DNA of 64,000 nucleotides. It comes from Octopus vulgaris. Lineage: Eukaryota. Both the position numbers and the translations under genes were made by a program. The stretch covers positions 64,232,001 to 64,296,000 of the forward strand of contig OX597830.1 in the NCBI GenBank assembly GCA_951406725.2, given 5' to 3'. Below the pieces are notes generated by a model. The model had not been told where the DNA came from and searched no databases. It saw nothing but the letters and a program-made list of their open reading frames with translations. Below, in pieces: positions 9,702 through 46,009 of this stretch; position 1 is the stretch's first letter, and the number at the start of each line of letters is the position of its first letter.

Positions 9702-10025
9702 TTGCAGCGTGGAAGGTGTTAGTAAGCCATTTAAGAAACACACAAAAACCGTTACATTCACTTCAACATTTAAATTTAATTTGCCAAAATATTTTCGTCG
9801 CTTTCAGACCGCGACCTGTTCACTGACAAAAATATCGTGCTAACAGGTCGCGGTCTCAAAGCGACGAAAATATTTTGACAAATTTAATTTAAATGTTGAA
9901 GTGAATCTAACGGTTTTTGTGTGTTTCTTAAATGGCTTATAAACACCTTCAACGCTGCAACTGTTTTCGTTCCAGCACACGATCTCAGATCAAGTCACTT
10001 GCTATGCAAGTACATCTCTGTAACT
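9702..10025. mobile_element. PLE-type fold-back insertion (119-bp inverted arms plus tail) in (TA)n
   Basis: Arms 9702-9820 and 9842-9960, then ~65 bp of unpaired tail, with (TA)n on both sides. Confidence 0.7.
9782..9828 (-). ncRNA. Minimal type-I hammerhead ribozyme motif, G3-C8 core variant
   Basis: TGTCA GTGAACA G GTCGC-ggtctgaaa-GCGAC GAAAA-ta-TTT TGGCA. Confidence 0.6.
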
Positions 10026-10124
10026 ATATATATATTTATATATATATATATATATGTATATTGGTAAAAACAGTAAGATAACAAAAGAAAGAAAGAGACC
10101 TCAATATTATGTAAATAGAGGACA

Positions 10125-10518
10125 TCTTTATATATAAAAGTGAGGTTGTGTGTCTGTCTCCTACGATTTAGATTCCTAACTACTCCCACATTTTGCGGTG
10201 CAGTTTAACCAAAACCGGGTATCTTATAGTCGTGATTCATATCGAGACCGTCTGGGTATTAGCGCGCGTCTACGATGAGTCTACGATTTAAAAAAAAATT
10301 TACCATCAATTTTTCCCATTTTTAATCCATTTTTGACATATATAAGGGAAGTAACTCTCTAAAATTTATTATTAAATCTCAGAACGTAAAAAGCTACAGT
10401 AACACCCCTCCCCTTTGTGGTTAGCCATATTGAGATGGCTATTATACTTTACATCTCTAAAAATGCTTATATAATTATTTCCCTTACAAACCCGAGCAAC
10501 GCCGGGCGATACTGCTAG
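10125..10518 (+). mobile_element. Non-autonomous Helitron, family X
   Basis: TC start after A; CCCGAGCAACGCCGGG hairpin and CTAG end. Confidence 0.85.
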
Positions 10519-12156
10519 TCTACAATATAGGATTTCTTCAATTACAATTTACCTAGCATTTTTAAGAGTAGAATGCATCGGGTCATGCCAGGTCCAGTTT
10601 TTAAAATTTAAACTCCAATTAAGCAAAATTTACAGAAAACTCACATTCTGGTGTGTGTGTCAAATGCTTTTCTTAATGTGGTTTACACCACACGCACACG
10701 CACACACACAGTGTGCAACGAATAAAATGAAAGTAAATAGCGACAGAGTGATTTGAGGAAGACTAAACTGAAAGTATTTAAACCACTACTCAAAAAATAA
10801 AAAAACACAGCAAACAGAAACAAATAAATACATAACGATTTAGTCCTCACACAATTTCTTCAATTAGAGTGTACCCATGATTTTTCAGAGTACTTCAGTG
10901 GGTGATGCCATAAAAAATTTCTATCAATTTTACCACCAATTAAGACAAAATTCGAGAAAACTCAATATTTTAACATTTCACTCCGAAAGCATTGATGTAC
11001 ATGTGTGCGTGCGTGAGTGTGTGTGTGTGTGTGTGTGTGTGTTTGATGGGTTGTGCGACACAGAAAGTGTGGTGTGTAAGTGAAGTGCTTTTGTTAGTGT
11101 GTGTAAAGAGACAGACAGAGTGAAAGACAGAAATAAGCGCGCGTAATTGAAAGTTTTCACTATGATATCATCACGTGCGAAAAAATTCGAAGGGTTTTGA
11201 ACAATTGAGATACAGATGTCACGCCTGTATTGAAACCATTGCTAAGCTGCCGTAATTGCTTAATTAAGACTTTGTTTAAATTGAAAGGGGCAAATATGTG
11301 ACGAGGTTGAAAAAAAATACCCCAGAAAAAAAAATGTACTGCTGGTATTTATATAATTCACTACTATTTTGCTACAATGTCATGAAAAAGAAAAAATTTA
11401 GGTATGTAAATCGAATTCGCCACCCCCTTTTCCCCGTTCGCGTTTGTGTAAAAAAAATTATTATTTAAGTTTTAAAAATTATTTACTTTGTTCAAAAAAT
11501 ATTAATATTAATTAATTTTCAAGAATTATTTAATTTTATTCTGTAAAATAGTAATTAATTCATTTATCTGTAAATCCGCGAGGTTGTTACTCAGGCACCT
11601 AGAATGGTAACCTTCAACTAACACTATCTCCTCCGAGACCCTGCGGCGCAAGTTGACCAAAATTGAGAGTATGGTAGAAGAAGGGTTGCTCTTCCTTCCG
11701 TAGAACATAAAATTCAAATCGGACCATGTTAACACCAAAAATTATTTACATCAAAAAGATGCTTTTTTCTATGAAAATCCCTATTTTTTACGATTTTTTC
11801 ACTGCTGTGTCGCCACTTTTCGGTGTATTTCGACCAGAAAAATGTTCACAAAATTTTTACTTTTCAAAATTACAATTCCAGCGGGTCGAAACAAACCCGA
11901 GCAACGCCGGGCGATACTGCTAGTATATATATATACACAGTCGTCCTGCTTTAGCTAGTTATGCCACCTGGGTAGAGCCTGTGGATTGCGTGAAAGCACC
12001 AGACGTGTTATAAAATGTTGTCTGAGTTGTTTTCCCTCGCATGAAACTAATAGTAGCTCATAAAAATATATACTGTGTTTTTATTTAATTATATTTATCT
12101 TTCACACAGATGGAGTGCGTTTTTTTTTTGTTGATCATACCATCACGTAACAGTAC

Positions 12157-12578
12157 TCTCTTTACTCTTTACTCTTTTACTTGTTTCAGTCATTTGACTG
12201 CGGCCATGCTGGAGCACCGCCTTTAGTCGAGCACTTCGACCCCGGGACTTATTCTTTGTAAGCCCAGTACTTATTCTATCGGTCTCTTTTTGCCGAACCG
12301 CTAAGTGACGGGGACATAAACATCGGTTGTCAAGCAATGCTAGGGGGACAAACACAGACACAAACATACACGCACACACACATATATATATATATATACA
12401 TATACATATATACGACGGGCTTCTTTCAGTTTCCGTCTATCAAATCCACTCACAAGGCATTGGTCGGCCCGAAGCTATAGTAGAAGACACTTGCCCAAGG
12501 TGCCACTCAGTGGGACTAAACCCGGAACCATGTGGTTGGTTAGCAAGCTACTTACCACACAGCCACTCCTGCGCCTAT
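12157..12578 (-). mobile_element. Full-length family-B tRNA-derived SINE with internal microsatellite
   Basis: tRNA-like head (TGGCTGTGTGG...GGTTCCGGGTT), CCTTGGGCAAGTG core, internal (TA)/(TG) tract, (GTAAAAGA)n tail. Confidence 0.9.
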
Positions 12579-12910
12579 GCATGACTGAGTGGATGCGTGG
12601 GCAGTGGGGTGGAGTACAGATATTCAAAACTGAATGCTTTAAATAACTATGAAATGATTACTAATCAACCTTCTGGGGTGGGCAAAAACAAACACCACCA
12701 ATGATACCAGAGGTGATGGACGATGAACCAGTAATACAGTTACGTTGTCTCGCAAATCTCAAATCGTTGGGTGTGAAATTCTAAGAACGGTTGGTTGCCA
12801 CGAATAGCAATGTCGAATGACTGCGTAAGGGAACCCCTCGAGGACTCGGTTTCATCTTCGCTTTAAATATTAGCAGAATGTCATCATTGAATTAGTGTTG
12901 GCTCCATAAC

Positions 12911-13375
12911 TAATATATATACATATACATACTTACATACATACATACATATATATATACATACATATGTATATATATATATATATATATACACACATAC
13001 ATATGTATATATATATACATATGCATATGTATACATATATATACACATACATATGTATATATATATATATATATATATATATATATATAAAGTATCAAAG
13101 TATCAATATATATATATATATGTATGTATATATACATATATATATATAAATATATATATATATATATATGTATGAAATGGCAAATATACGTCACGATATA
13201 TATATATATATATATATATATATATATATATATATATATATATATATATATATATATGTATGTATATATACATATATATATATAAATATATATATATATA
13301 TATATAAATGAAATGGCAAATATATATATATATATATATATATATATATATATAGAGAGAGAGAGAGAGAGAAGA
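12911..13375. repeat. (TA)n compound microsatellite with an internal ~130-bp duplication
   Basis: TGAAATGGCAAATATA occurs twice, near 13173 and 13309. Confidence 0.9.
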
Positions 13376-44590: not shown

Positions 44591-44725
44591 ATATAAATAT
44601 ATATATATATATAATACATACATGCACACGTAGTGTAAATACAATAAACAGGAGGAAGACCAGCACAGGAATAAACTGATTGACAAATATGGTGTTAGGT
44701 TAAGATTGTAATGGAAAGAGAAGAC

Positions 44726-44760
44726 TTCTTAACGTTTCGGATCTTACTCTTTCAGAAGAA
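44726..44760 (-). ncRNA. Degenerate hammerhead motif
   Basis: TTCTT CTGAAAGA gtaagatcc GAAAC GTT AAGAA. Perfect stem I, damaged stem II. Confidence 0.4.
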
Positions 44761-45198
44761 AGAGAGAATCATTATATATATATATATATATATATATATA
44801 TATATATATATATACATATATATATATATACATACATATATATATGTAGTGGTGTGTAAACGCGCGTATTCTATATATGAATCGGGGGTCAGAGAAAATT
44901 TTGTGAATATATTTATAAGTTTTCACCGTATATATTAGTAATGAAAAATAATCTAATCTAATGTTATGTATATATAAACCTACAGCGGAAAATCGGTATT
45001 AGTGCACGTGGGCATCGAACCCACACTTCTTTTCCCACCGATAACTATGTGCCAACCGATTACCTGATCATATCCATTCATTTCCCCCTTACATTTAGTA
45101 ACTATGATTTTCATTTTCATAGTGATATCATTTTTACAAAATTTTCACTTGTCATCGTTTTTTAACTTACGCGGAATACACACACGTTTACAACTTGC

Positions 45199-45432
45199 CT
45201 ATTTCTTTACTACCCACAAGGGGCTAAACACAGAGGAGACAAACAAGGACAGACAGACGGATTAAGTCGATTATATCGACCCCAGTGCGTAACTGGTACT
45301 TAATTTATCGGCCCCGAAAGGATGAAAGACAAAGTGGACCTCGGCTGAATTTGAACTCAGAACGTAACGGCAGACGAAATACGGCTACGCATTTCGCCCG
45401 GTGTGCTAACGTTTCTGCCAGTTGGCCGCCTT
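45199..45432 (-). mobile_element. Family-A SINE
   Basis: TSD ACGTTTACAACTT. Confidence 0.9.
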
Positions 45433-45647
45433 CATACGTTTACAACTTACCGCTATGGAAATCATCGTTCCTAAATCTGAGAAAACACTGGATCGATATC
45501 TTAGTGTGAACGGTCAGCATGCTTATCACCAAGACAAAATGTATAGGGTCGATTCCACGTGTACTAATAACCATTTTTCCTGTCATGAGTTTACATGCCC
45601 AAATATTAGACAATTTTCTATACAATATGCGTGTGTGTGCGTGTGTA

Positions 45648-46009
45648 TAATAAAAGAAGCAAAGTGCACACTGTTTACATAGTTTTAATATATTTTATAA
45701 GTGAAAGAGTATTTTGTTTGTCGACCGGTTTCGCCTTCGCTAATCATGACATTGAAATTATGATAATTTCGTATTTTCTTAAGAAGATTTTAGTCCATGT
45801 TGTGTATGGGAGTTTGTGAATAAAACTTTTATTCTCAAATACCCATACACAACATGGACTAAAATGTTCTTAAGAAAATACGAAATTATCATAATTTCAA
45901 TGTCATGATTAGCGAAGGCGAAACCGGTCGACAAACAAAATACTCTTTCACTTATAAAATAAAATATATTAAAACTATGTAAACAGTGTGCATTTTCCTT
46001 CTTTTATTA
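45648..46009. mobile_element. PLE-type ~360-bp fold-back with almost no loop
   Basis: Near-perfect inverted arms, each with an HHR motif. Abuts (TTA)n. Confidence 0.75.
45901..45933 (+). ncRNA. Minimal type-I hammerhead motif, A3-U8 core variant; mirror copy at 45719-45751 (-)
   Basis: TGTC ATGATTA GC-gaag-GC GAAAC-cg-GTC GACA. Confidence 0.65.

Follow-up and report, generated by a model that had tools for sequence, protein, structure and literature searches.

Hammerhead motifs of Penelope-like retroelements in Octopus vulgaris: lineage-fixed Watson-Crick pairs at positions 3 and 8 suggest selection for a foldable ribozyme site

A 64,000-nucleotide stretch of the Octopus vulgaris genome (assembly GCA_951406725.2, contig OX597830.1, positions 64,232,001 to 64,296,000; hereafter the window) contains minimal type-I hammerhead motifs in which core positions 3 and 8, which form a tertiary base pair, do not carry the canonical C3-G8 combination. 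Judged from their sequences, such motifs belong to the pseudo-long terminal repeats (pLTRs) of Penelope-like retroelements (PLEs), in which the 3-8 pair is fixed by lineage as U-A, A-U, G-C or C-G, and we consider it likely that selection has maintained a site able to fold and probably to cleave. Selection for the 3-8 pair is well supported, and we infer selection for cleavage activity as well. The analysis covered the window and the whole genome (2.8 Gb, 227 contigs), in which the loci examined carry L-numbers and the contigs C-numbers.

Variant-core motifs in the window

The window, which is AT-rich and dense in microsatellites, was searched with a strict descriptor that demanded a palindromic helix III of at least 6 nt, a helix I of at least 4 bp and G10.1, and left positions 3 and 8 free. 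This descriptor returned four matches, namely the four variant-core motifs described below and no others, and gave 0 matches in all 60 shuffled versions of the window (dinucleotides preserved, shuffled block by block). An Rfam scan of the window showed no hammerhead among the best 150 of 267 rows, all 150 being microsatellite matches to microRNA models.

The G3-C8 motif lies on the minus strand at 9780–9830 (core GTGAACA, 9823–9817) and was identified by a descriptor match and a monomer fold. Read from 9830 to 9780, it comprises TTTGTCA, GTGAACA, a single G, GTCGC..GCGAC, GAAA, an AATATT palindrome, U17 and TGGCAAA. The single G is an extra base (G9.1), helix II has 5 bp, GAAA occupies 9796–9793 and AATATT constitutes helix III; helices I and II form in the predicted monomer fold, and cleavage is predicted after U17 (9787). 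The A3-U8 motif (plus strand, 45901–45933; core ATGATTA, 45905–45911), recognised by a descriptor match and a self-cofold, has a helix II of just 2 bp, GAAA, the palindrome ACCGGT as helix III and a predicted cleavage site after C17 (45929). Its mirror copy occupies the inverted arm on the minus strand (45719–45751, core at 45747; descriptor match, fold-back arms). The U3-A8 motif (plus strand, 42492–42530; core TTGATAA, 42497–42503) is an aged copy found when one helix II mismatch was allowed. It contains GAAA at 42516–42519, an ACCGGT helix III and U17 at 42525, together with a single private A.G mismatch in helix II and a loop unlike the modal loop of its family.

All three variant motifs retain U4, G5, A6, A9, GAAA, U16.1 and a base other than G at position 17 (H17); their helix I measures 4–7 bp, and helix III is a palindrome of six bases. 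An earlier note on this DNA had reported the G3-C8, A3-U8 (with its mirror) and U3-A8 cores together with U4, G5, A6, A9 and GAAA, and the descriptor verified them. We refer to the corresponding families as A (A3-U8), B (G3-C8) and C (U3-A8). Self-cofolding predicted a complete dimer for family A, with helices I and III intermolecular. For family C it predicted helix III pairing alone, and for family B an intermolecular duplex that competes with the dimer.

Host elements of the variant motifs

The G3-C8, A3-U8 and U3-A8 motifs can be assigned to the 3' ends of PLEs, hosts that are absent from the earlier note. In the window, the G3-C8 motif is part of a fold-back 5'-truncated PLE end at 9702–10000 (arms 9702–9820 and 9842–9960, with the tail following), whose complete core is present in the minus arm only, and both A3-U8 motifs reside in the inverted arms of a fold-back 5'-truncated PLE 3' end at 45647–46010. 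PLE insertions that are 5'-truncated typically take this fold-back form (PMC8557442). The window itself yielded no remnant of a PLE open reading frame (ORF). Its own hammerhead copies are 5'-truncated remnants, and the model set out below need not require that these copies be active.

Coding sequences were found at related loci. Sequence for the PLE reverse transcriptase (RT) and endonuclease lies upstream of family A motifs on the same strand in 10 of 28 other loci, and on the opposite strand in 1 more; for family C it lies upstream in L087/L091, L083 and L084. Family B motifs have an RT/GIY-YIG ORF upstream on the same strand in L204, L205, L207 and L212; the GIY-YIG domain was recognised in L212, and the RT part from weak similarity and from a relative annotated as an RT-domain protein. 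A family C protein fragment used as query gave at least 150 matches, many of them in open frames of about 780 aa. Intact PLEs consist of two ORFs, the second of which carries RVT_1 and GIY-YIG domains (L141–L143), and in one such family a U3-A8 hammerhead is present in each of the two pLTRs and in tandem arrays (L142, L144–L146). The upstream ORF, of about 450 aa, overlaps the RT-endonuclease ORF (L142:69-1406; L141:435-1850), and a Pfam search with the upstream ORF of L142 gave no match.

We also observed pLTR tandems (L144–L146), fold-back truncated copies, a tail and (TA)n flanks, all features of endonuclease-positive PLEs; pLTR tandems, inverted 5'-truncated copies, a tail and microsatellite targets are described as characteristic of PLEs (PMC8557442). 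Moreover, a C-x(3-4)-C-x2-C linker, associated with the Neptune and Nematis clades (PMC8557442), precedes the endonuclease in both PLE groups found here.

The G3-C8 fold-back of the window is itself cargo of a larger, very young repeat (approximately 9400–10150; L031–L060). The 30 loci that carry it were initially taken as 30 independent copies; since both flanks are shared, they represent one insertion and were counted once. Eleven of these 30 loci form a tandem array on C2 that repeats about every 2,183 bp, and one end of the larger repeat resembles what we take to be a Helitron-type terminus. Locus L160, at first thought to connect G3-C8 with the L141 family, was likewise rejected, the true partner ORF being that of L204, L205, L207 and L212. 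L160:2064-4110 is a chimera in which 1.15 kb with 97.7% identity to ORF2 of the L141 family is joined to a 3' untranslated region (UTR) and a G3-C8 hammerhead from family B, a distant lineage.

Variant cores as family traits

Across the genome, the variant 3-8 cores behave as fixed family traits, not as private mutations. The G3-C8 motif of family B has 4,311 exact pattern matches in the genome and 0 in the reversed control; its loop II differs among subfamilies, the window's own loop occurring in 5 of the first 100 matches listed. When 20 loci were chosen through a 3' UTR query that did not include the ribozyme, 16 had G3-C8 (two of these motifs being arms of one insertion), 1 had C3-C8 and 3 had no detected motif. 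Contigs from 4 public runs (four organism codes) showed a family B core without any variant at 5% or above and a variable loop II. Family A had A-U in 30 of 33 distinct rows and family C had U-A in 28 of 34, with a mild bias from queries that contained the core. The earlier note had named as a refutation family consensuses of CUGANGA with these copies as private mutations; this was not seen, the variant core being the modal state in all three families (16 of 17 motifs for G3-C8). Helix I varies in sequence between families yet stays paired.

Covariation of positions 3 and 8

The 3-8 pairs were tallied by hand, in each case over the first 100 rows in order of position. The class with an ACCGGT helix III and free positions 3 and 8 had 8,753 genome matches, compared with 82 in the control. 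Its first 100 listed matches comprised 79 U-A, 13 A-U, 1 G-C, 3 U-G, 4 mismatched and 0 C-G cores, so that 93 were complementary in sequence as a Watson-Crick 3-8 pair. Restricting this class to C or G at position 3 left 302 matches (22 in the control), of which the first 100 listed were 33 G-C, 3 C-G, 7 G-U, 28 C-A, 16 G-A, 6 C-U, 6 G-G and 1 C-C. Most of the mismatches in this subset occur within the stems of much larger U-A and A-U families, as expected of single mutants. The second refuting outcome named in the earlier note, mismatched 3-8 cores as common as paired ones, was not seen either: mismatched cores were a small minority within the stems of paired families.

In the class with an ACGT helix III, the C3-G8 core had 7,624 genome matches against 80 in the control, and cores with neither C3 nor G8 had 912, under the 1,467 of the reversed control. 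The latter are mostly background or double mutants, save one small U3-A8 family. Since the ACCGGT class is rich in variant cores and in the ACGT class such cores fall below their control, variant cores must be concentrated in certain lineages.

A family defined by its G-C rows, with 183 genome matches, is split between two states: its first 100 listed matches were 50 G-C, 43 A-U, 2 G-U, 1 A-C, 2 G-G, 1 C-C and 1 U-C, the G-U and A-C rows being three intermediates between the two states. Some G-C and A-U rows of this split family are identical everywhere except at positions 3 and 8, and one A-U copy, whose flanks are 91–93% identical to those of two G-C copies, is nested within the G-C diversity. 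A Fisher test on the 50/2/1/43 table (P = 1e-23) was discarded as a test of selection, because it assumes independent copies. A suspected fixed C3-A8 subfamily was likewise rejected: its 65 copies comprised 60 U-A, 4 C-A and 1 A-A. Every family-level core listed was Watson-Crick at 3-8, and the comparison points to no fixed mismatch family.

Two single loci were also recorded. The arms of the fold-back L195 (C1:7828090-7828246) share a background but differ in core, one being U3-A8 and the other A3-U8 (7828090 and 7828210), and C5:30322876 is a single C3-G8 copy within a U-A family.

Phylogeny and number of double changes

A protein tree was built from 18 copies with partial, broken ORFs and no reference root; family B was omitted because it aligned poorly. 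U-A families occupy most branches, family A (A-U) and the split G-C/A-U family are sisters with 73% support, and this pair is grouped with a U-A family at 85%. L192 had been labelled A-U in the tree, wrongly: the A-U motif there is a separate insertion and the ORF falls in a U-A family, so the locus was relabelled U-A. The A3-U8 and U3-A8 families share one PLE clade, to which the family B protein aligns weakly (28% identity over 101 residues), suggesting a separate origin for its G3-C8. The earlier proposal of double changes in unrelated families accordingly holds for the G3-C8 family of the window, the only distant one, and not for A3-U8 and U3-A8.

From this tree we infer at least three double changes, to which family B would add one. 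If C3-G8 is ancestral, the core carried by 53 of 56 published motifs (PMC4209133), U-A would count as another, and the total would be at least five matched double changes.

Canonical C3-G8 motifs and other features of the window

Three C3-G8 examples had also been reported in the window. A minimal hammerhead on the minus strand at 62273–62316 (core at 62311) is decayed, its ACGT palindrome reading ATGT, and belongs to a large canonical family; it sits behind (AAT)n and a head that we take to be tRNA-like. A second, on the minus strand at 42930–43014 (core at 43009), has a long helix II, the palindrome ACATATGT and GATA in place of GAAA; its relatives in L145 and L078 have GAAA, which this copy has lost. 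These two are damaged copies of genuine C3-G8 families. The third, a possible C3-G8 hammerhead on the plus strand at 27097–27166 (core at 27101), matches a loose descriptor, but its predicted fold does not form helix II as drawn, and comparison with approximately 1 Mb of genome sequence gave no relative of the core.

The commonest canonical module (62181–62500 in the window; L229–L235) is always preceded by an (AAT)n run. Run and module stand either behind a head that we take to be tRNA-like or, in L234 and L235, behind what we take to be a non-LTR element ORF encoding a restriction-like endonuclease, and no PLE ORF was found in the 7 loci examined. The clean hammerhead at L249:1919-1969 combines C3-G8 with an ACCGGT helix III, a rarity in the ACCGGT class, and no ORF was found nearby. 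The window also contains non-LTR retrotransposon ORF remnants at 49395–49931 and 51020–52267.

Comparison with published hammerheads

Minimal hammerheads in the pLTRs of metazoan PLEs were described by Cervera and De la Pena in 2014 (PMC4209133). The octopus motifs resemble those described there in type-I topology, a short or palindromic helix III, an optional base after A9, G10.1-Y11.1, pLTR location and a prevalence of solo or inverted truncated copies. U3-A8 PLE hammerheads are known from Schistosoma mansoni, with about 1,300 hits (PMC4209133). In our own count of the 56-motif alignment in that paper, 53 motifs were C3-G8, 2 U3-A8 and 1 U3-G8, with 0 A3-U8 or G3-C8. Unlike that published set, the octopus motifs present all four pairs as families, U3-A8 dominates a clade that includes intact elements, and one family holds both G-C and A-U.

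The natural U3-A8 hammerheads of Perreault et al. 2011 (PMC3088659) also display 3-8 covariation in nature, as here, but where that article treats the 3-8 pair it names U3-A8 only, unlike the four states observed in octopus. In the Poseidon PLE hammerhead of the lizard Anolis, cleavage is lost with either single change, C3G or G8C, and partly regained when the two are combined (PMC11167929); loss through single changes at 3 or 8 and partial C3G/G8C rescue have been shown in hammerheads (PMC11167929, PMC8495972). The Anolis double mutant thus shares the G3-C8 core of the octopus PLE hammerheads, but it is engineered, whereas in octopus G3-C8 occurs naturally in two lineages whose RTs are distant from each other. 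The short palindromic stem III of the octopus motifs is shared with the dimer-cleaving PLE hammerheads of Lunse et al., as presented in a review by the same group (PMC6765202). No natural A3-U8 or G3-C8 family turned up in the literature searched, which included a search for hammerhead with octopus and extended to PMC3884650 and the preprint 10.64898/2026.07.22.740005; this coverage was incomplete and does not establish absence from print. U3-A8 in PLEs is already published; natural A3-U8 and G3-C8 families may be new.

The published hammerhead descriptor is anchored on 'cuganga', although U3-A8 was nonetheless accepted as a variant (PMC4209133); the G3-C8, A3-U8 and U3-A8 cores of the window fail the CUGANGA descriptor. 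The set that such screens would miss comprises about 8,750 ACCGGT-class matches (no C3-G8 in the first 100 listed) and 4,311 G3-C8 matches, compared with 7,624 canonical ACGT-class matches, a comparison valid to an order of magnitude only, as the patterns are not equally strict and take in only some helix III classes (ACATGT, and AATATT with free 3 and 8, lie outside). The claim of a large overlooked set therefore stands in that this set is no smaller than the canonical set of the present count.

Discussion

The core of the argument for selection is the combination of at least five matched changes with the lack of a fixed mismatch family. PLE hammerheads are thought to cleave as dimers through their palindromic helix III (PMC4209133, PMC6765202). 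In the proposed mechanism, a transcript with two pLTRs, as produced by tandem elements, would allow two ribozymes to pair through helix III, possibly assisted by the element's protein; the paired ribozymes would cut after H17, trimming or releasing the element RNA. A master element with a change at position 3 or 8 would then survive only if the partner position changed too.

Several observations weigh against this reading. In a young U3-A8 PLE family, GAAA is replaced by GCAA and helix I is poor at 8 of 8 places in 7 loci (L141:380-423 and 4857; L148, L097, L108, L119, L120, L160), with intact ORFs in L141 and L148. A13 is important for catalysis, and elements of this family, given their intact ORFs, are apparently able to spread with a damaged core. 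The copies counted are not independent, the 50/43 division of the split family being one event and the family A link having just 73% support. A stem variant is common to the 4 C3-A8 copies found among the 65 of the U3-A8 subfamily, so that a minor mismatched branch may have had a brief spread, and one published family example has a U3-G8 core (PMC4209133). In vitro, cleavage by minimal PLE hammerheads is poor (PMC4209133); the lizard PLE inserts in vitro without need of cleavage, its ribozyme required protein in order to cleave, and none of the RNA-seq reads in that study terminated at the cleavage site (PMC11167929). Furthermore, Naiad PLEs thrive without canonical hammerheads, and PLE hammerheads may be passengers (PMC8557442).

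In the strongest alternative, selection acts on the fold and its 3-8 pair purely as a structure, such as an RNA dimerisation signal or a site bound by the element's protein close to the start of reverse transcription, with cleavage slow or irrelevant. The cleavage-independent insertion and protein-dependent cleavage of the lizard PLE and the GCAA of the intact L141 family favour it, as do reviews in which the role of the hammerhead is called unknown (PMC7761336). The link between the 3-8 pair and the catalytically active conformation (PMC11167929, PMC8495972) speaks against it, as do the thousands of matches, over near-zero controls, that satisfy U4, G5, A6, A9, GAAA and a non-G17, although our patterns required these bases and their conservation is not independent evidence. 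We regard this alternative as unlikely, if deserving of serious attention.

Neutral founder effects, in which amplification of a few masters with complementary double changes, or a local process mutating both positions, mimics covariation, are considerably less probable. The small number of independent events, the fold-back with U3-A8 and A3-U8 arms and the U-A family copy reading C3-G8 are compatible with such effects; in opposition, every listed family-level core is Watson-Crick, the suspected mismatch subfamily proved to be U3-A8 in 60 of 65 copies and, by inspection, the bases beside 3 and 8 form no extended DNA hairpin for co-conversion. Chance matches or decayed CUGANGA copies, which could account for the ACGT-class cores lying below their reversed control and may still hold for 27101, are refuted for the three variant families by the empty shuffles, the family-fixed cores and their location downstream of PLE ORFs, and are very improbable overall.

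Lineage-fixed pairing under selection for a foldable, probably cleaving site thus remains our preferred explanation. A broader statement is put forward tentatively: that PLEs walked the 3-8 pair repeatedly through all four Watson-Crick states, that natural G3-C8 and A3-U8 hammerheads were undescribed, that this amounts to evidence, on a genome scale, for selection on PLE hammerhead cleavage in vivo, and that non-canonical cores are at least as numerous as canonical ones here, so that censuses based on CUGANGA miss a large class. The benefit of hammerheads to PLEs is debated, and repeated compensatory change at an active-site tertiary pair would constitute evolutionary evidence on this question. 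The split family, with G3-C8 and A3-U8 on otherwise identical backgrounds, provides a natural pair for comparing cleavage and transposition. If the broader statement is true, animal hammerhead censuses based on CUGANGA overlook a large class of these motifs.

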